Of a DNA stretch of 64,000 nucleotides, positions 2,698-40,157 are shown piece by piece (position 1 is the first letter of the stretch; each line of letters starts with the position of its first letter). The notes beneath the pieces are model-generated. The model was given only the letters and a program-made list of their open reading frames with translations. It was not told the origin of the DNA and did not search any database. The stretch comes from an uncultured Bacteroidales bacterium. Its GTDB lineage: Bacteria > Bacteroidota > Bacteroidia > Bacteroidales > Paludibacteraceae. Location: contig ONUF01000015.1 of the NCBI GenBank assembly GCA_900321005.1, positions 1,414-65,413 of the forward strand, read 5' to 3'. Both the position numbers and the translations under genes were made by a program.

Positions 2698-3693
2698 TTA
2701 CGACCAGTTTTCTACAATATAATCCATAATACGGAATACCTCTTCTACGGTTTCGGCGCGAAGCAGAGCGATGCGCGTCTGCTTGAAGTCCGACAAGCCT
2801 TTGAAGACAGGTGAAGCCGCAAAATGCCGCCGCGAATGGATGATGCCTTTGCGCTCGTCGTTACCGCACCAGGCGATAGAAGCGAGGACGTGCTCCTTGA
2901 GCACTGCGACTTTGTCGGCCATAGAGACCGGATATTCCGGATTTTCCGGATTACCTGGAGAGAGTGCTTCGCGCATCTCGGCGAAGAGCCAGGGAGCACC
3001 AAAGGTGGCGCGGCCGATCATAATAGCGTCCACACCGTAACGGTCGAAACACTCTTTCGCGCGCTCAGGCGTACACACATCTCCGTTCCCTATGATAGGG
3101 ATACGCATGCGCGGGTTGTTCTTCACTGCTCCGATGAGTGTCCAGTCCGCTTCGCCGCGGTACATCTGACTGCGGGTGCGACCGTGGATGGCGAGTTCGC
3201 GGATTCCAAGGTCTTGGAGGCGCTCAGCGAGATCCACGATGAAAGGCCTGCCGTCAGGCAAGTAAAGAGACGGTTCATCCCACCCGAGACGGGTCTTGAC
3301 GGTAACAGGCGTATGGACGGCGTTTACCACCGCGCGGGTGATGTCCAGCATCTTCGGCACATCTTTAAGCAAACCTGCGCCGGCTCCTTTGCCCGCGACT
3401 TTCTTCACCGGACAACCGAAATTAATGTCGATGAAGTCCGGGTGTGCCTGCTCAACGATGCGCGCGGCATCGGCCATGGCCTCCGGTTCACGGCCGTAGA
3501 TCTGGATAGCTACCGGTCGTTCGGCATCGTGGATGGTGAGTTTGCGCGTCGTAGAAGCGATATCCCGCACGAGGGCATCGGCATTGACAAATTCCGTATA
3601 GACGCGATCAGCGCCGTAGCGTTTGCACAACGCACGGAAAGCCGGATCGGTCACATCTTCCATCGGCGCGAGATATAAGGGATAGTCTCTCAT
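2698..3693 (-). CDS. dusB: tRNA-dihydrouridine synthase
   Basis: LAPMEDVTDPAFR, INFGCPVKKV and HGRTRSQMY motifs typical of the Dus family. Its start overlaps the upstream gene's stop (ATGA). Confidence 0.88.
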   Translation of the reverse strand: MRDYPLYLAPMEDVTDPAFRALCKRYGADRVYTEFVNADALVRDIASTTRKLTIHDAERPVAIQIYGREPEAMADAARIVEQAHPDFIDINFGCPVKKVAGKGAGAGLLKDVPKMLDITRAVVNAVHTPVTVKTRLGWDEPSLYLPDGRPFIVDLAERLQDLGIRELAIHGRTRSQMYRGEADWTLIGAVKNNPRMRIPIIGNGDVCTPERAKECFDRYGVDAIMIGRATFGAPWLFAEMREALSPGNPENPEYPVSMADKVAVLKEHVLASIAWCGNDERKGIIHSRRHFAASPVFKGLSDFKQTRIALLRAETVEEVFRIMDYIVENWS

Positions 3694-5591
3694 TTATTGA
3701 GCGTCGGATAGGAGATGCGATGATGGTTCATGGCGGTGATACGCGCCACAAAGACACGACGGATATCTTCGACATCCTTGAAACTGAGCGGTGTCTCAGC
3801 AAATTGTCCGTCGGCTATCTGGGCGTCGATCATCTGGTTGACTGCCTTCGCGATAGAAGATTCAGAATAGTCCTCGAGACTACGCGAACGCGCTTCGATA
3901 GCGTCGGCCATCATAAGAATAGCACCTTCTTTGGTCGAAGGTTTTGCACCCGGATAGCGGAAAAGCGATTCATCCACTTTCTCTTTCGGGTGCGCGTTGC
4001 AATAAGTGTTATAGAAATAGCGCACAAGGGACGTGCCGTGGTGGGTCGTGATGAAGTTGATGACCACTTCCGGCAGGTGGTTTCGGCGAGCGATTTTTTC
4101 TCCCTCAGAGACATGCGCGATGACCACTTGAGCGGCGTCACGCGGATCCATCTCAAGAAGCGGATTCTCTGCGCCGTTCTGATTCTCTACATAGTAGAGC
4201 GGGTCGGTCATTTTGCCTATGTCGTGGTAGAGTGCACCGGTTCGAACGAGCAGCGCATTCGCGCCGATGGTCTTGGCTGCTTCCGCCGCAAGGTTCGACA
4301 CCTGCATCGAGTGCTGGAAAGTACCGGGAGCTCGCTCCGCCAGCGTATGCAGCAATTCGGAATTGATATCCGTCAGTTCGACAAGGGTAATGGACGAGAT
4401 GAAGTGGAACAGTTTCTCGAACATGTAAATCAGGCCGTAGCAACCAACGGTCAGGAGTGCGCAGATGAAGAAATAGAGGTACATCCACGGATCAACGGCC
4501 AAGATTGCTCCCGTTTGCGCAAAGGTGATGGCTGTATAAGCGAGTGTCTGCGCGAGAAGTATCCACGCGGCCGTTTGAACGAGTTGTGCGCGGCGCGTCA
4601 TGTCACTCAGGGACGATACCGCAACCATACCTACCACGATTTGAATGAAGAAGAACTCTACCGGCGCAGGGATGACGATCGAAGTAATCAGAATGGTCGT
4701 AAAATGCAGGAAGAGGGCGGTGCGGGAGTCAAAGAACACGCGCGTTAATATAGGAACCCACGCGAAGGGGATGAGATATACCGTGAGATTAAACCGCAAC
4801 GCGAGGCAGGCCAGACCGATGACGATAAACATCTGCAGGCAGAAGAAGAGAATCGTCGATGTGGCGCGCAGATAAGCAATGCGGAAGACGTAAAGATAAA
4901 TGACAAACAGCAGCAGGAACAGGATCACCAGCATCGACTCACCGAGGATGGAGAGTGTGCGCTGTTTATTGCCCAGCGACTCATCATCATAGGCGCGGCG
5001 TAAAGACTGCAAAATCTGATAGGTTCGCTCCGTGACTATGTCGCCGTTGTCAATGATTTTCTCCCCTTTCTGGACCATGCCCTGGGTGGGCGAGACAGTA
5101 GCCAGCAGTTTGGCACGGAACTCCTCCGTCTTGGCGGTATCCAGCGCGAGGTTGATGGCGCAATCGTAGCCGAATTTCTTATGGGCCGTCATGGGCGTAT
5201 AGATCTCGGACACCGGATATTTATGCTGCTGGATGTCGATGCGGGTATAGCCTTCGGCTTGCAACCACTGCATCGTCTCAAGCGACACCACCTTCACGTC
5301 GCGCTGTACGCGCGGGATATATTTGAAGAAGGGCGCGAAGGTCGAGAGCAGTTGTTGCTGGTCTTTCTCGAGTTGCTCATCCGTCTTATAGATCGGGAAG
5401 TCAAAATCGGCCGTAAGCGTTGCGTAACCCCAGGGTTTGCCGAGTTCGTAATGATAGCGGAAGGAGTTGTTATACCGCGGGAACATCAACACGATGACGA
5501 CTGCCAACACTACGAAAATGCTCAGGCGAAAAACCGTCTGCACATTCTTGTGGGCAATTTGCTGTTTGAGATGGTTAAAATCGATTTTCAT
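3690..5591 (-). CDS. 7TM-receptor HD-domain (HDIG) phosphohydrolase, PgpH/YqfF-like
   Basis: 633 aa with an N-terminal extracellular region, seven TM helices and a C-terminal HD domain (LYHDIGK, TTHHG). Confidence 0.8.
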   Translation of the reverse strand: MKIDFNHLKQQIAHKNVQTVFRLSIFVVLAVVIVLMFPRYNNSFRYHYELGKPWGYATLTADFDFPIYKTDEQLEKDQQQLLSTFAPFFKYIPRVQRDVKVVSLETMQWLQAEGYTRIDIQQHKYPVSEIYTPMTAHKKFGYDCAINLALDTAKTEEFRAKLLATVSPTQGMVQKGEKIIDNGDIVTERTYQILQSLRRAYDDESLGNKQRTLSILGESMLVILFLLLFVIYLYVFRIAYLRATSTILFFCLQMFIVIGLACLALRFNLTVYLIPFAWVPILTRVFFDSRTALFLHFTTILITSIVIPAPVEFFFIQIVVGMVAVSSLSDMTRRAQLVQTAAWILLAQTLAYTAITFAQTGAILAVDPWMYLYFFICALLTVGCYGLIYMFEKLFHFISSITLVELTDINSELLHTLAERAPGTFQHSMQVSNLAAEAAKTIGANALLVRTGALYHDIGKMTDPLYYVENQNGAENPLLEMDPRDAAQVVIAHVSEGEKIARRNHLPEVVINFITTHHGTSLVRYFYNTYCNAHPKEKVDESLFRYPGAKPSTKEGAILMMADAIEARSRSLEDYSESSIAKAVNQMIDAQIADGQFAETPLSFKDVEDIRRVFVARITAMNHHRISYPTLNK

Positions 5592-6748
5592 TATCGTTTA
5601 TTCTTAAAAAAATCTTGTATGAGTTCACGGCATTCGGCCTCGAGCACACCTGCCGTAACAGTTGCTTTGGGATGGAAAGTACGCGGAGCGTAAGTAGTGT
5701 ATCCGCGTTTGGGGTCGGGCGCACCATAGACGATTCGGCTTATCTGCGCCCAGCCGATAGCGCCTGCGCACATGGGACACGGTTCGACGGTGACGTAGAG
5801 TGTCGCATCCGGGAGGTATTTGCCTCCGAGGGTCTCTGCAGCCGCTGTTATAGCTTGCATCTCTGCGTGCGCGGTAACGTCAGCGAGCGTCTCCGTGAGG
5901 TTATGACCGCGACCGATGATTTGGTTTTGGCTAACGATGACGCAGCCGATAGGTATCTCGTCTGCTGCAAGGGCTTTCTGAGCTTCGCTCAGAGCAAGGC
6001 GCATAAAGCGCTCATCATCCGAAGAAATCGGAGTATTCGGAGTATTCTGATTTTTCTGACAGAAGCGCGAGAGTTCTTCGGGGTGTTGCTCAAAATGGTT
6101 ACCGATGACGACGATGTCAGCGCCGGCATTATAGGCGGCGTTCATCACTTCGGGTGTGCGGATGCCTCCGCCGACGATGAGGGTGACGGAAGTAACTGCG
6201 CGCACTGCTTTGATAATCTCGGGCGAGACAGGTTGGATGGCTCCGGAACCTGCCTCCAAATAGATCGCTTTCTTACCCATCAGTTCTGCGGCGATACAGG
6301 TGTCCACTATTGTTTGAAGGTTTGAAGGCAGGAGAGGTTTAGTGCCCGTAACACGCATCGTGGAAGTCTCCACTCCACCGTCAATCAGGATGTACGCCGT
6401 TGGGACGAAATCCATAGAAACCGCATGTATGCGCCGCGCAGACTTAACTTGCTGATCCACAAGGAATTCAGGGTTGCGACCGGAGAGTAAAGAGAGGAAT
6501 AAAATGCCGTCTGCTTCCGTGGTAAATTGGGACGAATTTCCGGGAAAAAGAATGACGGGAATTGGAGATTGAAGATTGGAGATTGAAGATTTTAAATTTC
6601 TAACAAACTCCGTTGTATCGCCGCCGGTTGAACCACCAACAAAAAGGTAGTCGGGATGGCACTCGTCGGTAAAGGTAAGGCGCGAAAGGTCGGCCTTTTC
6701 CGGATCGAGCAATACGGCTAAACTTCTATGTTTGAGTGTCATTTCCAT
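5591..6748 (-). CDS. Fusion protein: GGGP/HepGP synthase (PcrB family) N-terminal domain plus tRNA adenosine(34) deaminase TadA C-terminal domain
   Basis: The N-terminal half has LDPEK, VGGSTGG, YLEAGSG and GGGIRT. The C-terminal half has MRLALSEAQKA, HAEMQAI and PCPMCAGA. It is a single open frame of 385 aa. Confidence 0.8.
   Translation of the reverse strand: MEMTLKHRSLAVLLDPEKADLSRLTFTDECHPDYLFVGGSTGGDTTEFVRNLKSSISNLQSPIPVILFPGNSSQFTTEADGILFLSLLSGRNPEFLVDQQVKSARRIHAVSMDFVPTAYILIDGGVETSTMRVTGTKPLLPSNLQTIVDTCIAAELMGKKAIYLEAGSGAIQPVSPEIIKAVRAVTSVTLIVGGGIRTPEVMNAAYNAGADIVVIGNHFEQHPEELSRFCQKNQNTPNTPISSDDERFMRLALSEAQKALAADEIPIGCVIVSQNQIIGRGHNLTETLADVTAHAEMQAITAAAETLGGKYLPDATLYVTVEPCPMCAGAIGWAQISRIVYGAPDPKRGYTTYAPRTFHPKATVTAGVLEAECRELIQDFFKNKR
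6029..6055 (-). repeat. 9-nt tandem repeat forming the inter-domain linker of the fusion (NTPNTP)
   Basis: cggagtatt cggagtatt ctgattttt. The coding strand reads aatactccg x2. Confidence 0.85.
6564..6591 (-). repeat. Heptamer array inside the GGGPS domain CDS
   Basis: ggagatt gaagatt ggagatt gaagatt. It encodes part of SSISNLQSPIP. Confidence 0.85.
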
Positions 6749-25458: not shown

Positions 25459-25629
25459 ATGATTGCAGATGAGCAGAAGATGAATGAAATTATGGCATAC
25501 ATTGAGTACATCAAGTTGCGTCCCGTTCATCCGCAGATTACAATGGAAGAACTTGAAGCAAACGGCATGCCCTTAGATCAGGCTATGAACCAACTGCGCG
25601 AGAAGGCACGCAAATTCTATCAGGCATGA
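25459..25629 (+). CDS. Small helical protein (56 aa), candidate antitoxin of cassette 1
   Basis: Below the ORF-track cutoff. MIADEQKMNEIMAYIEYIKLRPVHPQITMEELEANGMPLDQAMNQLREKARKFYQA. Its stop overlaps the next ATG (GCATGA). Confidence 0.5.
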   Translation: MIADEQKMNEIMAYIEYIKLRPVHPQITMEELEANGMPLDQAMNQLREKARKFYQA

Positions 25630-25952
25630 AAGTATATATCGACAAGGTGGTATATCAAGTGCTAGATGAGTTCTACGACGCCAGCATGCGAAATCATATT
25701 ACTCTTGATTACCCAACGGTAATTGCTAAGATTGACAGACTGGAGCAAGCAATGTATGATTTTGCTTCCGAAGCGGACAAAGTGAATCATGTGCCTTATA
25801 GAAAAGATTGGCAGGCAGCAGGATATCGCGAGTTATACGTGGAGCATTTTCATTTTGCATACAAAGTATATAGCTTACCTACCGGCGAAACAGTACTCTA
25901 CTACCATGATGCCGTGCATGACACGCTAAACTATAACCCGGAAGATAAATAA
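25626..25952 (+). CDS. ParE/RelE-like toxin-fold protein (108 aa), cassette 1
   Basis: An N-terminal helical hairpin followed by YRELYVEHFHFAYKVYSLPTGETVLYYHDAVH, which fits the RelE/ParE beta-sheet pattern. It is a paralog of 34228-34548. Confidence 0.5.
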   Translation: MKVYIDKVVYQVLDEFYDASMRNHITLDYPTVIAKIDRLEQAMYDFASEADKVNHVPYRKDWQAAGYRELYVEHFHFAYKVYSLPTGETVLYYHDAVHDTLNYNPEDK

Positions 25953-33912: not shown

Positions 33913-33927
33913 TAACAGCAAACATAC

Positions 33928-33998
33928 CCGAATTATAGCCTGCAGCAATGCGGGCTATAGTTTTTTTGCGCAGCCAATTTGGTTTTAGTAAATAAACA
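33928..33998 (+). repeat. Direct repeat copy 1 (71 nt; includes the terminator)
   Basis: It differs from 34570-34641 at 2 substitutions plus one extra T in the T-tract. Confidence 0.9.
33934..33967 (+). terminator. Rho-independent terminator with a GNRA loop
   Basis: tatagcctgca-GCAA-tgcgggctata (11 bp including one G-U pair), then g and ttttttt. Confidence 0.8.
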
Positions 33999-34048
33999 AA
34001 AATACCAAAAATAATTATTGAACTCTTGCATATGTCAGAAAAAAGTTG

Positions 34049-34072: not shown

Positions 34073-34231
34073 ATGACAAAAAAACTGCCAATCATGGAAG
34101 CTGCATTAAAACAACCGATGAGCCAAGGAGGTTATGGAACAATCTCTGAGGAAAAATGGAACAGTCTGCATACCGTAGATGAACTGGATGCAACGTTGAA
34201 GGAGATCATCCACAACCATTTTCATGCATGA
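34073..34231 (+). CDS. Small protein (52 aa), candidate antitoxin of cassette 2
   Basis: Below the ORF-track cutoff. MTKKLPIMEAALKQPMSQGGYGTISEEKWNSLHTVDELDATLKEIIHNHFHA. It has the same GCATGA stop/start overlap as cassette 1. Confidence 0.5.
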   Translation: MTKKLPIMEAALKQPMSQGGYGTISEEKWNSLHTVDELDATLKEIIHNHFHA

Positions 34232-34548
34232 GAACATTGGAAGTGCGCATAGATGATGGAGTTTTCCTCGATTTAACTGAGTTTTACAAATTCAGTCTCC
34301 GGAAACATCCTGCGTTAGACGAAATTACGGTATTGAAGAAAGAGCAACGTCTTATCCAATCCTTAAAGGACTTAGGCAAATATGCTCTAACAGACAATAC
34401 GCCTGTGCGGCATATCCCTTGGATTCGAAAAGGATATAAAGATTATTATATCGAGGGTTTCCACTTCGGATATAAAATCGAGACTTTGCCCTCCGGCGAA
34501 CAAGTAGTAGTTGTATACGAAGCGCTCCACGAATTATTATTCGTATAA
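34228..34548 (+). CDS. ParE/RelE-like toxin-fold protein (106 aa), cassette 2
   Basis: YKDYYIEGFHFGYKIETLPSGEQVVVVYEALH aligns with YRELYVEHFHFAYKVYSLPTGETVLYYHDAVH of cassette 1. Confidence 0.5.
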   Translation: MRTLEVRIDDGVFLDLTEFYKFSLRKHPALDEITVLKKEQRLIQSLKDLGKYALTDNTPVRHIPWIRKGYKDYYIEGFHFGYKIETLPSGEQVVVVYEALHELLFV

Positions 34549-34569
34549 CGCACAACAAATAAGTAAAAA

Positions 34570-34641
34570 CCTAATTATAGCCTGCAGCGATGCGGGCTAT
34601 AGTTTTTTTTGCGCAGCCAATTTGGTTTTAGTAAATAAACA
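34570..34641 (+). repeat. Direct repeat copy 2 (72 nt; includes the terminator)
   Basis: Near-identical to 33928-33998. Together the two copies bracket cassette 2. Confidence 0.9.
34576..34610 (+). terminator. Rho-independent terminator with a GNRA loop (paralog)
   Basis: tatagcctgca-GCGA-tgcgggctata, then g and tttttttt. Confidence 0.8.
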
Positions 34642-34650
34642 TAGATAAAC

Positions 34651-34800
34651 TCCTCCGTATGAGTTAGCATGGTATACGGCCCACGCGGCCTTAGCATACT
34701 TGTCTACTAATACGCGCTCACAAGCGAGCTTGCAGCGCGGCTTACTAGCCAACTCCGCCGCACAAGAGTTGCGACATACCATACTACCTCATCCGTCGGC
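34651..34800. mobile_element. Hairpin-ended insertion element, copy A (150 bp), flanked by perfect GATAAAC direct repeats
   Basis: GATAAAC at 34644-34650 and again at 34801-34807. The roughly 30-nt termini tcctccgtatgagttagcatggtat / ataccatactacctcatccgtcgg are imperfectly complementary (about 21/30). The paralogous site at 33989-34020 lacks the insert. Confidence 0.6.
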
Positions 34801-34830
34801 GATAAACAAAAATAAAAATTATTTAAATCG

Positions 34831-34908
34831 AATTATTGAAATCGAATAATTATAAGTATAATAATTGAAGGCATAATTATTGAGATCGGATTATTCAAAT
34901 CGAATAAT
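34831..34908. promoter_or_regulatory. Array of AATTATTGA motifs including two perfect palindromes (candidate operator sites)
   Basis: aattatt-gaaatcg-aataatt (34831-34851) and attattc-aaatc-gaataat (34890-34908). Further AATTATTGA copies are at about 34874, about 34971 and 34012. Confidence 0.45.
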
Positions 34909-35019
34909 TGTAATTTAATTACGCTTGGAAGCGTAACGCTTAGAGGCGTAATAAGGACGAAAAATATGCAAAATTATTGAAATTTAATTATTTAATTTGC
35001 ATAATTCAAAAAAATGTAG

Positions 35020-35027
35020 TACCTTTG
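35020..35027 (+). promoter_or_regulatory. -7 box TACCTTTG for the ATPase gene
   Basis: gtagTACCTTTGcggg, 27 nt before the ATG at 35054. It lies inside the ORF-track N-terminal extension, which argues for the later start. Confidence 0.6.
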
Positions 35028-35053
35028 CGGGCAAAATAGAAAATATCTATACG

Positions 35054-36220
35054 ATGGATAAAATCACCAACCCATTTATCGTACAAGGCGACATCCCCGA
35101 GGCGTATTTCTGCGACCGCGAAAAGGAGACAGAGCATTTGATACGGTATATAACAAACGGCAATAATGTCGTTCTGTCTGCTCCGCGGCGCGTCGGGAAA
35201 AGCAAACTGATTGCACACTGCTTTGCACAACCGGAGATTAAAAAGCATTACTACACCATCTTCGTGGATATTCTGCAGACCAACAATCTGCAGGAGTTCA
35301 CATACGAATTGGGAAAAGCCGTGTTTGGAATTACCGGTTCTCTCGGCAGTAAGATGCTGAAGTTATTCGGGCAAACCGTTCACTCGCTACGTGGAGAATA
35401 TACGATAGACCCGATGACGAATCTGCCTAAATTCAGCATGGCTCTCGGGCATATCGAAAATCCGACATATACCATAGAGGAGGTGTTCGAGTTTCTCGAA
35501 AAAGCCGACAAACCATGTATTGTGGCGATTGACGAGTTTCAGCGCATAGCTCAATATCCGGAGAAGAATGTAGAGGCTATTCTGCGCACACATATCCAGC
35601 GTATGCGTAATTGCAACTTTATTTATGCCGGTTCTGAAAGACACCTATTGGGCCAGATGTTCTTAGACTATAACCGTCCCTTCTATCAGAGCTCGTCCAT
35701 GATGAACTTGGAAAAGATAGAGCGAAACAAATATAGCGCTTTTGCCGTCAAGCATTTTAATGAGTTCGGGAAGAGCATCACCGAAGAGAATGTCAACCGC
35801 GTATACGATTTATTCGACGGCAACACGTTCGCGATGCATAAAACGCTGAACGTAGCCTTCTCTATCACGCCGGAAGGGAACGAATGCGATCTACCTACCC
35901 TTCGCAAAGCGATAGAGAACATCTTGGGCGAAAGCGACCACGATTTTCGCGCCAGATTGATGCCTATGAGTTTGCCGCAAAAAGAAGTACTCTACGCGAT
36001 TGCACGCAGCGGCATTGCTACGCAGATTACCGGCGCTGATTTCTTAAAAAAGCACCATTTAGGTTCCTCCAGTTCTGTACAATCGGCGGTTCGCAAACTG
36101 CTGGCAGACGGATGGATTACAGAGTACTACAATGCTGATGGTAAGAAATGCTATCAGCTATACGACTATTTCCTGACCCTGTGGATTCAGCAGAATTACG
36201 GAAGAGGATACGAATTATAA
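35054..36220 (+). CDS. ATP-binding protein, Arch_ATPase (PF01637)/DUF234-like
   Basis: Start trimmed to MDKITNPFIVQG. Walker A SAPRRVGKS, Walker B IVAIDEFQ and a C-terminal winged-helix-like region. Confidence 0.7.
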   Translation: MDKITNPFIVQGDIPEAYFCDREKETEHLIRYITNGNNVVLSAPRRVGKSKLIAHCFAQPEIKKHYYTIFVDILQTNNLQEFTYELGKAVFGITGSLGSKMLKLFGQTVHSLRGEYTIDPMTNLPKFSMALGHIENPTYTIEEVFEFLEKADKPCIVAIDEFQRIAQYPEKNVEAILRTHIQRMRNCNFIYAGSERHLLGQMFLDYNRPFYQSSSMMNLEKIERNKYSAFAVKHFNEFGKSITEENVNRVYDLFDGNTFAMHKTLNVAFSITPEGNECDLPTLRKAIENILGESDHDFRARLMPMSLPQKEVLYAIARSGIATQITGADFLKKHHLGSSSSVQSAVRKLLADGWITEYYNADGKKCYQLYDYFLTLWIQQNYGRGYEL

Positions 36221-36253
36221 TTGATTATTGATGATTGATAATTGAAAATTAGT
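36219..36253 (+). repeat. Heptamer array AATTGAT-family x5 forming the ATPase-panD spacer
   Basis: aattgat tattgat gattgat aattgaa aattagt. It overlaps the TAA stop of the ATPase gene. Confidence 0.9.
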
Positions 36254-36260
36254 TAGCTCT

Positions 36261-36602
36261 ATGCTTTTGAATATACTGAAATCAAAGATTCACCGCGTAC
36301 AGGTGACAGAGGCGAACCTCGAGTATATCGGTTCCATCACGATCGACGAGGCACTCATGGAAGCGGCGAATATCGTTGCCGGCGAACGCGTGCAGGTAGT
36401 GGATAACACCAACGGTGCGCGGCTGGAGACATACGTGATAGCCGGCAAACGCGGGTCGGGGTGCATATGCATCAACGGCGCGGCGGCGCACTTAGTGCAC
36501 GTGGGCGACACGGTGATTATCATGGCGTACGCGATGATGACGCCGGAAGAAGCACGCTCGTTTAAGCCCGCGATTGTTTTTCCTGTGAATAATAAAATTT
36601 AA
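36261..36602 (+). CDS. panD: Aspartate 1-decarboxylase
   Basis: [29 protein letters not shown] (self-cleavage Gly-Ser site), 113 aa. Confidence 0.92.
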
Positions 36603-36624
36603 TGGTAAATAAACAAAGATAAAC

Positions 36625-36758
36625 ACTGCTTGCATTGGTTGTTTGCGCTTAACGCGCTGCGAGTGACCGCCCAGCCTGCCTACTTACAAGTAAACTTAAT
36701 GTAGTCCGTCAGGACGACCCCTCACCGCCAACGGCGGTAAACATCCAACGCCAGCAGC
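36625..36758. mobile_element. Hairpin-ended insertion element, copy B (134 bp)
   Basis: Flanked by GATAAAC (36618-36624) and GATAAAA (36759-36765). Termini are ctgcttgcattggttgttt / aaacatccaacgccagcag. Internal hairpins are gcgc-ttaac-gcgc, gtcc-gtca-ggac and accgcc-aa-cggcggt. Confidence 0.6.
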
Positions 36759-36867
36759 GATAAAAAGAAATAAATTATTCATCCGCGACGAATTTTATCT
36801 ATGTTTATCGCCGAAGTTGGCTATTAACTCGCAAGAGTGTTGAGCACAAAATCCACAGGACTGAATT

Positions 36868-38001
36868 ATGGCATTTTTTGAATTACATAGCGAGGCGAAG
36901 GGCGTCGGGCCGAGGGCGGGAGTGATACATACCGACCACGGCGATATCCTCACGCCGATATTTATGCCCGTCGGAACAGCCGGGACGGTGAAAGGTGTGC
37001 AGCGCAAGGAGTTGGAGGAAGACATCAAGGCGCAGATCATCCTCGGCAATACCTATCATCTCTTCCTGCGTCCGGGAACGGAGATCCTGCGTCAGACCGG
37101 CGGATTACACCGATTCGAAGGTTGGACACGGCCGATATTGACGGACTCGGGCGGTTTTCAGGTGTTCAGTCTGACGGATATCCGCAAGATGACCGAAGAG
37201 GGCGTACGGTTTAGCAGTCATATCGACGGCCGCAAACTGATGTTCACCCCGGAATCGGTGATGGACATCGAGCGCGAGATAGGCGCCGACATCATGATGG
37301 CTTTCGACGAGTGCTGTCCCGGCACGGCGGACAAGAAATACGCGAAAGACTCGATGGACCGCACGCACCGGTGGCTGGACCGCTGCATCGCGCGCTTCGA
37401 CGGTACGGACGATCTGTACGGCTACAAGCAACACCTGTTCCCGATTGTGCAGGGTTGCACCTATACCGACTTGCGGCAGGACGCGTGCAAGCGCTTGCGG
37501 GATCTGGACCGCGACGGCTATGCGATAGGCGGACTGGCGGTAGGTGAACCGACGGAAGTGATGTACGAGATGATCGAGGCGTGCAACGACATATTGCCGA
37601 CCGAAAAACCCCGTTATCTGATGGGCGTCGGGACACCGTGGAACATCCTCGAGGCGATCGAGCGCGGCGTGGATATGTTCGACTGCGTGATGCCGACCCG
37701 CAACGGCCGCAACGGAATGATTTTCACCTGGAACGGCGTGATGAATCTGCGCAACAAGAAATGGGAGGACGACTTCACGGAACTGGATCCGGCGGGCACG
37801 AGTTATGTCGATCACGCGTACACTCGCGCGTACGTTCGACATTTAATACACGCGCAGGAGATGTTAGGACTCGAAGTGCTGTCGATTCATAACCTCGCGT
37901 TCTATCTCGACCTCGTGACGCAGGCAAGGGAGCATATCCTCAAGGGCGATTACGAGAGCTGGATGCAAGGCGTGATGCCGGCGCTCATGACGCGGCTGTA
38001 G
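36868..38001 (+). CDS. tgt: Queuine tRNA-ribosyltransferase
   Basis: TPIFMPVGT, LTDSGGFQVFS, GLAVGE and MFDCVMPTRNGRNG motifs. Confidence 0.93.
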   Translation: MAFFELHSEAKGVGPRAGVIHTDHGDILTPIFMPVGTAGTVKGVQRKELEEDIKAQIILGNTYHLFLRPGTEILRQTGGLHRFEGWTRPILTDSGGFQVFSLTDIRKMTEEGVRFSSHIDGRKLMFTPESVMDIEREIGADIMMAFDECCPGTADKKYAKDSMDRTHRWLDRCIARFDGTDDLYGYKQHLFPIVQGCTYTDLRQDACKRLRDLDRDGYAIGGLAVGEPTEVMYEMIEACNDILPTEKPRYLMGVGTPWNILEAIERGVDMFDCVMPTRNGRNGMIFTWNGVMNLRNKKWEDDFTELDPAGTSYVDHAYTRAYVRHLIHAQEMLGLEVLSIHNLAFYLDLVTQAREHILKGDYESWMQGVMPALMTRL

Positions 38002-38032
38002 CTATTTTATGGTAAATAAAAAGAAATAAAAT

Positions 38033-38167
38033 CTGCTTGCATTGGCTGTTTGCGCTTGACGCGCTGCGAGTGCCGCACTCCACCGCGCCGTTTACAAATA
38101 TATTTGACACGTCTCGATAGAGCACGTCCCTCACCGCCAAAGGCGGTAAACATCCAACGCCAGCAGC
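38033..38167. mobile_element. Hairpin-ended insertion element, copy C (135 bp), same subfamily as B
   Basis: Its termini match B apart from one base in the 5' arm. The interior has diverged but keeps hairpins gcgc-ttgac-gcgc, ctc-gata-gag and accgcc-aaa-ggcggt. It is followed by GATAAAT. Confidence 0.6.
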
Positions 38168-38274
38168 GATAAATTTAAATAAAGCATTTCCTCTACAGGT
38201 TATTTGTTTAGCAGGAATTCTACTAAGGCACGCAAGCAGAAAGGTTACAATAAGTAAAAAATATCAATACTATT

Positions 38275-38715
38275 ATGGCATACACCCTTAAGCGCATAGC
38301 AGACACGCACCCGGAATGGGTAAATGAGTTAAAGCAGAAATGCTACGCCATCAATGGATGCTTATTAACAGTACACAATGATTTGGGACCGTTCCTAAAC
38401 GAATACATGTACCAAGATGCTTTACAAATCTTATTAGATGAGAAGCAAATCCCCTACCAACGAGAGTACTATTTTAGCATTGAGTACCGCGGTAAGAAAA
38501 TTGCGCATAAGCATTACGTGGATTTCTTAGTAGAAGACCAGATTATCGTAGAATGCAAGGCGGTAGAAAAATTATGCGTAGAGCATAGGCAGCAATTATG
38601 GAACTACATGCGGCTAACCGGGAAGACCATTGGTATCCTATATAATTTCGGTCCCGCCAAGCATCAGTCGGAGCACTACTATTTGGATAAGGATGGCACA
38701 ATGTACATGTTTTAA
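38275..38715 (+). CDS. GxxExxY protein (PD-(D/E)XK nuclease-like superfamily)
   Basis: 146 aa. YQREYYFSIEYRGKKI..HYVDFLVEDQIIVECKAV...GKTIGILYNFG fits the remembered TIGR04256 pattern. Confidence 0.7.
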   Translation: MAYTLKRIADTHPEWVNELKQKCYAINGCLLTVHNDLGPFLNEYMYQDALQILLDEKQIPYQREYYFSIEYRGKKIAHKHYVDFLVEDQIIVECKAVEKLCVEHRQQLWNYMRLTGKTIGILYNFGPAKHQSEHYYLDKDGTMYMF

Positions 38716-38744
38716 ATTTTAATGGTAAATAAAAATAGATAAAG

Positions 38745-38873
38745 TCCTTCGCCGGCAATATGCCTTAACAGGCCGTTCGCGTTCCACGCCATACCGCGCC
38801 CTTAAAAGTAAACTTTACGTGCCCGTTAGGGCATCGGACCGCACCTCCAAAGGAGGTAATTGCCGCCAAAGGC
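38745..38873. mobile_element. Hairpin-ended insertion element, copy D (129 bp)
   Basis: Flanked by GATAAAG (38738-38744) and GATAAAA (38874-38880). Termini are ccttcgccggcaat / attgccgccaaagg. Hairpins gcct-taac-aggc, gccc-gtta-gggc and acctcc-aaa-ggaggt covary with those of B and C. Confidence 0.55.
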
Positions 38874-39077
38874 GATAAAACTATAATAAATTATGGATGT
38901 GCGGTGTAGCCATTGGGCTACCGTCAAATGTATTTGTAAGGGTAGTCGTTGGGGATTCAGCGCAGAGGCTTGCATGAGCCTATGACAGAGCGGAAGAGTT
39001 TATTTAGGTTTATTTACATAAAAAAGAGAGGAGCGCCACGCGGCAAGGAGATACTTCTCCGACGAGCGGGAGGCAAA

Positions 39078-40157
39078 ATGCAAATGAAAAGACTCGACTG
39101 GTACATAATCAAGAAGTTTTTAGGTACGTTCTTTTTCTCGATCGTGCTGATATTGTCTATCGCTATCGTATTTGACATGACGGAGAAGATGGACGATTTC
39201 TTTGAGCACCAAGTGCCGCTCAAGGAGATTGTCTTCGATTATTACCTGCCGTTTATCCCGTATTACATGAATATGTTCAGTTCGCTGTTCATCTTCATCT
39301 CCGTCATCTTCTTCACCAGTAAGATGGCGGGAAATTCGGAGATTATCGCCATTCAAGCTGCCGGCGTGAGTTACCACCGGATGATGGTTCCCTACGCCAT
39401 TTCGGCGACGATACTTTTTGCTTTGGGCGTCTTTCTCGGAGGCTGGGTCATCCCGCGCAGCGCCGCGCGAATGCTCAATTTTACCGACAAATACGTGGAA
39501 CATTTCACGACGGAGAACGCCCGCAATATCCAGTTGGAAGTGGAGCCCGGTACGATTTTGTATATCGAGTCTTTCCAACGCCGCTCGGAGATCGGCTACC
39601 GCTGCTCGATCGAGTATTTCGAAGGCAAGACGCTCGTTTCGCGTCTGACGGCTGACCGCATCTATTACGATTCCTTGGAATACTGGCACCTTGACCATTA
39701 TACGCAGCGCACGTTTGTGGGGCTGCGAGAGAGTTTAGAGCGGGGTATGCGCAAGGATATCACGCTGCCGATCATTCCCGATGAGCTATTTATCACCGCG
39801 CAGCAGGCCCAACAGATGACCACGCCGGAATTGCGGCACTATATCAAGCGCCAGTTAGAGCGCGGCAGCGGCAACGTCAAACCCTTCGAAGTGGAATACC
39901 ACAAGCGTTGGGCGATGCCTTTGGGCGCATTTATCATGACGCTGCTCGGCGTGACGATGTCCAGCCGGCGCCAACGCGGCGGCATGGGAAAGAATCTGGG
40001 ACTCGGCATTGTGCTCACCGCCGGATATATCCTTTTCTCTACCGTAAGTACCACATTCTCAGTGAATAACGTCATGTCGCCTCTCATGGCGGCTTGGCTT
40101 CCGAACCTCGTATTCTTAGCGATTTCTATTCCGCTGTATATTCGCGCAAGTCGATAA
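39078..40157 (+). CDS. LptF/LptG-family (YjgP/YjgQ) LPS export permease
   Basis: Start trimmed to MQMKRLDWYIIKKFLGTFFFS. It has six TM segments around a periplasmic beta-jellyroll region. Confidence 0.78.
   Translation: MQMKRLDWYIIKKFLGTFFFSIVLILSIAIVFDMTEKMDDFFEHQVPLKEIVFDYYLPFIPYYMNMFSSLFIFISVIFFTSKMAGNSEIIAIQAAGVSYHRMMVPYAISATILFALGVFLGGWVIPRSAARMLNFTDKYVEHFTTENARNIQLEVEPGTILYIESFQRRSEIGYRCSIEYFEGKTLVSRLTADRIYYDSLEYWHLDHYTQRTFVGLRESLERGMRKDITLPIIPDELFITAQQAQQMTTPELRHYIKRQLERGSGNVKPFEVEYHKRWAMPLGAFIMTLLGVTMSSRRQRGGMGKNLGLGIVLTAGYILFSTVSTTFSVNNVMSPLMAAWLPNLVFLAISIPLYIRASR

Follow-up and report, generated by a model that had tools for sequence, protein, structure and literature searches.

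A cluster of structured modules around a nuclease gene

The 64,000-nucleotide stretch of DNA analysed here (the window) comes from an uncultured member of the Paludibacteraceae (Bacteroidales; assembly GCA_900321005.1, contig ONUF01000015.1, positions 1,414-65,413). It contains a cluster of short, structured non-coding repeats, here called modules, lying among panD, tgt, lptF/G and the gene for a 146-amino-acid GxxExxY protein, a predicted PD-(D/E)XK nuclease of the PDDEXK_3 family (38275-38715, plus strand). A preliminary description had placed four hairpin-ended elements in this cluster, A (34651-34800), B (36625-36758), C (38033-38167) and D (38745-38873). Alignment recovered all four at these positions and, taken with their flanks, they scored 76-154 bits (E 1e-9 to 1e-22) against the covariance model described below, so that the copies themselves are real. 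The list was nevertheless incomplete: a truncated copy, E, and a remnant, B', had been missed, as had the functional strand. The sequence GTAAATAAA is found six times in the window, against an expectation of 0.61.

We describe the modules on the minus strand of the window, which is antisense to the neighbouring genes. It was taken as the sense strand because in each of the four copies its fold is much more stable than that of the plus strand; folded with RNA parameters, the minus and plus strands gave -67 and -49 kcal/mol for A, -61 and -44 for B, -66 and -48 for C, and -58 and -46 for D. Module A (34620-34818, minus strand) is a singlet of a long type, with a core of ~150 nt and both flank motifs, and scored 76 bits (E 6e-10); its orthologues at the related loci L111 and L126 are 92-93% identical. 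Module B (36594-36776, minus strand; 153.7 bits) is of a short type and lies directly 3' of panD, whose final codons and stop are supplied by the 3' flank of the module. Next to it stands B' (36792-36870, plus strand; nhmmer E 5e-5, covariance model 23 bits), a decayed head-to-head partner that retains the 5' flank TTTATCTATGTTTATCGC, the 5' arm of the closing stem P1 and hairpin H1, and has lost its 3' part. What remains has its homologous counterpart in the 5' half of complete copies at L089 and L111, and the spacer between B and B' holds the trailer-like CATCCGCGACGAA.

Module C (38001-38185, minus strand; 148.5 bits), again of the short type, follows tgt and is the upstream module of the nuclease gene. 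It has P1, H1 and H3 in common with B but differs from it in H2, which makes the two copies mosaics. Module D (38714-38891, minus strand; 148.7 bits), also short, has a 3' flank that begins 9 nt past the stop codon of the nuclease gene, and the order gene, <4 nt>, minus-strand module recurs in L111, L139, L183-190 and L185. Module E (plus strand) is head-to-head with D and 5'-truncated within H1. Its covariance-model match (48.4 bits, E 1.6e-5; nhmmer E 5.5e-15) spans 38845-39025, of which ~38895-39017 is the retained part. The 3' flank of E faces the start of lptF/G, and L111 has at this position a full-length copy with another core and an identical 3' flank.

A conserved four-way junction with variable sequence

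With its flanks a module measures ~170 nt, and a long closing stem encloses three hairpins to form a four-way junction. Along the sense strand, the 5' flank (TTTATYTNTGTTTAT-YGC) leads into P1, an imperfect stem of 15-30 bp. H1 follows, with 5-6 bp and a loop of 3-4 nt, then the long central hairpin H2, whose apical part is conserved (for example AAGTTTACTT or AAGCTCGCTT), then the short hairpin H3, the 3' arm of P1 and the 3' flank (G-TTTATYTNNNTTTAT-TTAC). Cores fall into two size classes, of ~125-140 nt (including B, C and D) and ~150 nt (including A), and across the family they measure 122-152 nt, with one of 172. A mini-ORF (open reading frame; ATGGTAAATAAANNNAGATAA, MVNK..*) on the antisense strand of B, C and D was considered and set aside as no feature of the family, its ATG being present in only 31 of 126 copies.

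A covariance model was built from 13 short-type copies, namely B, C and D of the window and ten from other genomes, with A left out. Among the 147 copies (143 distinct) collected with it, changes on both sides of the pair were found at 46 of 46 modelled pairs. The covariation score over the 143 distinct copies was 0.565, compared with 0.08-0.13 when pairing partners were slid, and none of 500 shuffles reached it. An alignment of 30 copies behaved in the same way (42 of 46 pairs changed on both sides; 0.58 versus 0.09-0.15 with slid partners). These alignments were fitted to the model and so favour the structure; minimum-energy folds of single copies, made independently, show the same architecture. 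The earlier proposal that the termini and internal hairpins keep their complementarity through compensatory changes is thereby confirmed, and the modules are a real repeat family whose structure is conserved while its sequence varies.

One strand carries the signal. Paired cells contain 591 G-U against 139 A-C combinations, and the sense strand was the more stable one in 141 of 141 copies under both RNA and DNA parameters. The single-stranded form of one particular strand is thus under selection. The loops are mixed: UUCG occurs in H1 and CUUG and CUCG in H2, all typical of RNA, and the GAA and AAA triloops of H1 and H3 are classic stable loops of DNA hairpins. Loop types therefore point to both RNA and DNA.

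Flank motifs and a core-less site

Each module lies between two direct-orientation copies of TTTAT-N-T-NNN-TTTAT. Both flanks are the same 15-mer (the conserved motif extends over ~15-19 nt), and this holds for every family member and genome. Seen on the plus strand, copies A-D are preceded by (T)GGTAAATAAA-NANA-(G/A)ATAAA and followed by GCGATAAA-N3-4-AATAAA. The GATAAA(C) on both sides, which had been read as a target-site duplication, is part of this motif. At the variable positions, the 5' and 3' flanks of one copy agreed at 1.50 positions, compared with 1.71 for shuffled pairs. Since the motif is fixed and the two flanks of a copy are uncorrelated, GATAAA(C) is no target-site duplication in the usual sense.

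A site without a core, paralogous to that of copy A, lies at 33977-34023 (minus strand). Here the whole model matched over only 47 nt, and the two flank halves are fused at (G)TTTAT (GGTATTTTTGTTTAT followed by TTAC). The orthologous locus L089 has an identical core-less site. Such a sequence is what deletion between direct repeats, or a site that was never filled, would leave. The sense-strand sequence TTATTTTTGGTATTTTTG(T/A)TTTATTT of this site (window 33988-34012) also follows two near-identical modules in L106 (436-613 and 3419-3595), and could represent a separate module instead of just an unfilled target. The apparent unoccupied site noticed earlier is therefore real, as flank joined to flank, and recurs in L089, but in view of the L106 copies we do not regard it simply as an unfilled target.

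The two flanks are not equally constrained. The T and G of a TNTG box in the 5' flank are kept in 110 and 97 of 126 copies, whereas the equivalent positions of the 3' flank are kept in 56 and 51. Together, the conserved positions of the 5' flank give a sequence close to the Bacteroidetes -7 box TAnnTTTG. This raises the possibility that the modules are genes of one multi-copy family, each for a small structured RNA; the RNA (antisense, regulatory or a partner of the nuclease) would then be the functional product and dispersal would be secondary. Transcription would start from the box in the 5' flank (TATCTTTG, TATTTTTG or TATCTATG, compared with TAnnTTTG) and end at P1 and the U-rich 3' flank. 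Strand-specific folding with many G-U pairs, the RNA-typical tetraloops, the better conservation of TNTG on the 5' side and the U-rich tract after P1 all fit this explanation, as does the form of the genuine promoters of this genome, which read TACTTTTG or TACCTTTG. However, most copies have TNATG and not TTTG, and no conserved -33 element was found when looked for upstream of the 5' flank. GAA and AAA triloops are of the DNA type, and the modules have no match in Rfam. The RNA-gene explanation also leaves unaccounted for the repetition of the same 15-mer in the 3' flank, the core swaps between identical flanks, and, from the arrangement of paired copies described below, the absence of tail-to-tail pairs and the nuclease-gene remnants in head-to-head pairs. 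On balance we find it doubtful.

The family in related genomes

Searching one genome per species with the flank pattern returned 99 stretches. All those with strongly folding cores of normal GC content came from Bacteroidales or Paludibacteraceae metagenome-assembled genomes, mostly from the rumen, and the rest were chance matches in AT-rich genomes. A stricter two-flank pattern was found on 72 metagenome contigs and had no match on viral contigs. With the covariance model we detected 31 copies at E<1e-7 in genome loci and the window and 132 copies in 407 kb of metagenome loci. The collection used for the covariation analysis, 147 copies of which 143 are distinct, came from 541 kb of DNA of related rumen Bacteroidales and Paludibacteraceae. 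The covariance-model scan that had been suggested as a check, here run on loci of related genomes and metagenomes, yielded further copies in abundance. A first look-up with panD had given only one contig, of 2 kb and identical to the window.

No match was found in Rfam at the gathering score, and at E ≤ 10 only chance-level matches appeared. Neither Rfam nor the literature searched (on the flank sequences, GxxExxY, PDDEXK_3 and Bacteroidetes MITEs, MITE standing for miniature inverted-repeat transposable element) contained a description of the family. Whatever the mechanism, the modules are a well-supported and uncatalogued structured element that current annotation pipelines miss.

Orientation, doublets and arrays

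All four copies named earlier follow gene ends in the window, as had been noted; elsewhere in the family, start codons are abutted as often as stop codons. Orientation relative to the neighbouring genes is likewise mixed, with the 3' flank facing either a stop codon (convergent, as in A-D) or a start codon (co-directional, as in E). This argues both against a role as 3' untranslated region (UTR) or terminator and against the fixed-orientation logic of gene cassettes.

If the modules were host cis-regulatory or terminator structures of the adjacent genes (3' UTR stabilisers or leaders), they would resemble one another through shared function and not through mobility. Their great stability, their position flush against stop or start codons and the gene-end location of all four copies A-D are in keeping with this. 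In the window, however, the stable strand is antisense to the flanking genes, and across the family the flanking genes are functionally unrelated and orientation towards them is mixed. Close relatives have the same genes without modules, and the occurrence of doublets, arrays and truncated copies is a mark of repeats rather than of dedicated regulators. A host regulatory origin is accordingly most improbable.

Equally improbable, in our assessment, is an integron-like cassette array in which the modules are attC-like sites and the toxin-antitoxin pair, the ATPase and the GxxExxY gene are cassettes. As with attC bottom strands, the structure persists through sequence change and one of the strands folds better than the other, and the accessory genes named do differ among strains here. 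The likeness to attC suggested in the preliminary description nonetheless fails on several counts. Above all the ends are direct and not inverted, with no RYYYAAC/GTTRRRY cores, and this end orientation largely refutes the idea. The fold is a four-way junction instead of a single hairpin; gene orientation is not fixed, both orientations, head-to-head doublets and tandem arrays being found; the housekeeping genes panD, tgt and lptF/G lie between copies; and among the ten ORFs scanned around the cluster there was no integron integrase or other recombinase.

Where copies lie at most 100 nt apart, 28 pairs are head-to-head (5' flanks facing), 8 are tandem and none is tail-to-tail. No gene other than GxxExxY was found between head-to-head modules. 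In gene-less doublets, including the B/B' pair of the window, the spacers contain remnants of the leader (TTTTTCAACGC..GTGT) and trailer (TGATCCGCAAYGA) of the nuclease gene, and these doublets therefore look like units from which the gene has been lost. A tandem array of four modules occupies positions 3987-4712 (minus strand) of L107. Two of them are identical and the 32-nt spacer is duplicated along with them, which suggests unequal exchange or slippage between flank motifs.

The GxxExxY nuclease gene is linked to the modules

The GxxExxY protein matched PF13366 with 112.6 bits (E 1.7e-32; cut-off 22) and TIGR04256 with 112.8 bits (E 1.1e-32; cut-off 35). The residues of its D..ExK motif, D83, E93 and K95, are invariant in 22 homologues. 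An AlphaFold model (pLDDT 92) had Cas4 SSO0001, lambda exonuclease and RecE as its nearest folds, with template-modelling (TM) scores of ~0.4-0.5. By this predicted fold the protein would be a minimal RecB/Cas4-type nuclease, and it looks active as judged from the invariant motif together with the Cas4/RecB/lambda-exonuclease-like model. Kinship with junction resolvases was not supported, the Holliday-junction resolvase RecU ranking only 12th in the fold search with a probability of 0.16. Sequence searches of the PDB with the nuclease and tblastn against phage records gave no match, PADLOC gave none either, and PHROG returned only a weak 'endonuclease' match. At E ≤ 1e-10 there were 807 homologues, the named ones being called 'GxxExxY protein [Paludibacteraceae bacterium]' or 'GxxExxY protein'. 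In the one review found to cover the family, its function is listed as unknown (PMC3424549).

At loci picked for their modules, every homologue of the gene directly adjoins modules, usually on both sides. Contigs were also fetched through the protein alone, which removes the bias of selecting for modules, and these represented five contexts: after glgP (P0112 and P0107), between panD and tgt (P0016), between a NusG-like gene and an epimerase gene in a capsule locus (P0057) and between an APH gene and a CBM9 gene (P0007). In all of these loci the ATG is preceded, at a distance of 6-22 nt, by a module whose 5' flank points towards the gene, and in four of the five contexts a second module follows the stop codon. 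Over 58 gene copies, falling into 8 flank-homology clusters and at least 9 insertion contexts, a module was found within 120 nt upstream in 54 and downstream in 42. The GxxExxY gene is the only gene consistently linked to the modules. The remark that the window contains no transposase is literally correct, but the gene that it passed over as a landmark is the constant companion of the family.

At L213, L214 and L215 (Prevotella nigrescens, Treponema saccharophilum and Bernardetia), distant GxxExxY genes also sit tightly wedged between host genes of like orientation, with 10-58 nt separating them from the neighbour on one side or both. A habit of small ORFs slipping into operons may be general to the GxxExxY family.

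Modules differ between closely related strains

Comparison of orthologous loci showed the presence/absence differences that had been proposed as a check. In L126, ~91% identical to the window, A is present and B, C, the nuclease gene, D and E are not; its panD-tgt spacer retains a 35-nt remnant of a long-type H3. L111 (~92% identical) is without B. In L089, L120, L130 and L183-192 (~80% identical) a unit lies between panD and tgt, and L185 has two units. Its module/GxxExxY/module units (2821-5840) stand between panD and tgt and between tgt and lptF/G, with gene-trailing modules that are 93% identical. The coding sequence is affected as well, panD ending in ..NNKI* where B is present and in ..NNCV* in L111 and L126, which are without B.

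Copies that are 93-98% identical occur at different sites of one contig. Their identity starts at or near the 5' flank and stops with the TTTAC of the 3' flank or a little beyond it, with extensions to the host ATG in L130 and ~65 nt further in L106. Such near-identical copies at different sites, which are recent duplications, indicate that a single module can be duplicated or converted as a unit. Related strains thus differ in the presence of modules and in their cores, and carry near-identical copies at new sites.

A family that is multi-copy and intergenic, with complementary termini, presence/absence among strains and near-identical copies at different sites, could consist of ordinary MITEs that belong to a conventional insertion sequence (IS) of the DDE or HUH type encoded elsewhere in the genome, with the GxxExxY gene as a passenger between two copies. 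The preliminary description had already doubted a single-transposase MITE, and our data agree that this is no ordinary MITE recognised by the sequence of its inverted repeats: the P1 arms differ within one genome and yet remain complementary, which a sequence-reading transposase would forbid. The one-strand bias is unexpected for double-stranded inverted repeats, and the flanks are a fixed direct-orientation motif, not variable duplications. Moreover, among ~260 copies in 700 kb none has a transposase next to it, whereas modules flank the GxxExxY gene in every context, and the doublet spacers derive from its leader and trailer. We consider conventional MITEs distinctly unlikely.

Neighbouring accessory sequences

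A toxin-antitoxin-like pair of genes (34073-34548) is bracketed by a direct duplication of ~75 bp (33925-33997 and 34567-34640) that comprises a terminator hairpin and GTAAATAAAC. L089 has another, RelE-like pair at this site, and L111 and L126 have none. The 106-amino-acid protein of the pair has a paralogue at 25617-25928 (38% identity). Between copy A and an ATPase_2 gene, the AT-rich stretch 34815-34990 contains iterated AATTATTGA and ATCGAATAATT motifs and small hairpins such as TTACGCTTGGAAGCGTAA, and is conserved in L126 and L111. The ATPase_2 gene itself (PF01637; 35054-36220) is missing from the otherwise syntenic L126 and is therefore another accessory insertion. Upstream of lptF/G, positions 39025-39078 hold a conserved leader, gagaggagcgccacgcggcaaggagatacttctccgacgagcgggagg, accompanied by a small hairpin. 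L111 shares this leader, and in L085 it comes immediately behind the nuclease gene; it had no Rfam match and may be a cis-regulatory leader.

A candidate repeat-plus-nuclease system

The reading that we favour, and hold with middling confidence, is that the modules are the non-coding repeat part of a compact selfish system whose sole gene is that of the 146-amino-acid GxxExxY PD-(D/E)XK nuclease. A full unit would consist of a minus-strand module, the nuclease gene and a plus-strand module, with 5' flanks inward and 3' flanks outward. Head-to-head doublets would be units after loss of the gene, and singlets and truncated copies would be further derivatives, the singlets still being duplicable. 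Modules would spread and be exchanged inside single intergenic spacers and from one spacer to another, with their ends set directly against the start or stop codons of host genes. We infer that the module is handled as a folded single strand, of single-stranded DNA (ssDNA) or RNA, and that it is recognised by its shape together with the TTTAT-N5-TTTAT flank motif and not by the sequence of its stems. Breaks made by the nuclease would start copying or exchange.

Several points weigh against this proposal. That the nuclease cuts or moves modules is something we infer, and we know of no transposase that is a hydrolytic PD-(D/E)XK enzyme alone. The linkage between gene and modules is inflated at module-centred loci, the gene-centred look-ups with their five contexts being the unbiased ones. 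Neither modules nor unusually structured flanks accompany three distant GxxExxY genes (33-44% identity; Prevotella nigrescens, Treponema saccharophilum and Bernardetia), so that the partnership is established only for the Paludibacteraceae subfamily. The arms of a single unit often come from different sequence subfamilies, a departure from true terminal inverted repeats. The UUCG and CUUG loops and the TAnnTTTG-like box of the 5' flank are no less compatible with a transcribed RNA than with ssDNA. Finally, empty and filled alleles differ over the whole spacer, which makes the exact insertion joints unreadable, and gene conversion or ordinary recombination between strains could explain part of the polymorphism.

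Tentatively, the proposal can be taken further: the arrangement of module, GxxExxY gene and module may be an autonomous mobile element of a new class, in which a 146-amino-acid PD-(D/E)XK nuclease would mobilise or maintain four-way-junction repeats, recognising them as folded single strands by shape plus flank. At least one branch of the large GxxExxY family would in that case acquire its first biological role. In a more extreme version, outward-pointing module RNA would work with the nuclease as omega RNA does with TnpB or IscB.

If the selfish-system reading is right, rumen Bacteroidales would possess a repeat-plus-nuclease system that parallels REPIN/RAYT (REP doublets and their REP-associated tyrosine transposase, REP being repetitive extragenic palindromic) and IS/MITE pairs, with an enzyme of another superfamily and recognition by shape. 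A subfamily of the GxxExxY/PDDEXK_3 proteins would gain a function, and the system would explain the fast turnover of intergenic spacers, including the rewritten gene ends at the panD C-terminus and the lptF/G start. More than 140 covarying natural sequences would then be available for a new four-helix fold.

Comparison with known systems

Integron attC sites resemble the modules in being variable in length and sequence and in being recognised by the shape of a folded single strand, which we propose for the modules too. They differ in fold and in their inverted core sites with GTTRRRY, which the modules are without, and no fixed cassette orientation is seen here.

IS200/IS605 elements and palindrome-associated transposable elements (PATEs) likewise carry their structures on one strand, with hairpins near both ends. 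The TTTAT at both module junctions recalls their insertion 3' of a fixed penta-nucleotide without duplication, insofar as joints that cannot be read exactly permit the comparison. In contrast to these elements, the module ends pair with each other over 15-30 bp, the inner hairpins are unlike one another and conservation in the flanks extends over 15-19 nt. No HUH TnpA was seen in ~700 kb of module loci.

The TnpB/IscB systems with their omega RNA also combine a small nuclease gene with an adjacent structured segment, here a module of ~150 nt that ends at the element boundary and points outward into the flanking DNA. The nuclease is, however, a 146-amino-acid PD-(D/E)XK protein and not RuvC-like, and the module lies upstream and is divergent, with no sign of a guide segment or of transcription.

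With insertion sequences and their MITEs the modules share a gene bracketed by two inverted non-coding ends, copy numbers and positions that vary between strains, and gene-less doublets whose leader and trailer remnants point to derivation by internal deletion. The differences lie in the ends and in the enzyme. Module ends of ~170 nt are conserved in fold, unlike sequence-conserved terminal repeats, and are biased towards one strand; one unit may combine ends from different subfamilies; target duplications that vary from site to site are absent; and the partner protein has no known transposase fold.

REPIN/RAYT systems comprise extragenic repeats that fold as single strands and change by compensatory substitution in their hairpins, inverted doublets with derived singlets, and a dedicated repeat-flanked gene (PMC3337134). 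The modules are likewise extragenic, fold single-stranded, form characteristic inverted doublets (the 28 head-to-head pairs, with none tail-to-tail) and flank a small gene. The likeness to REP elements and bacterial interspersed mosaic elements (BIMEs) that the preliminary description had raised therefore holds as an analogy, in the doublets and the repeat-flanked gene, but not as kinship. The module is 4-5 times larger, its core having four helices compared with an imperfect palindrome of 20-40 nt, and it has no GTAG or CGTC head; its conserved part is the direct-repeat flank motif, and there are many sequence subfamilies per genome. The gene, whose position changes among strains, encodes a GxxExxY nuclease instead of the HUH/Y1 enzyme of the RAYTs. 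The best-supported analogy is accordingly of a system that would behave like a REPIN/RAYT or IS/MITE pair equipped with another nuclease, yet is a member of neither family.

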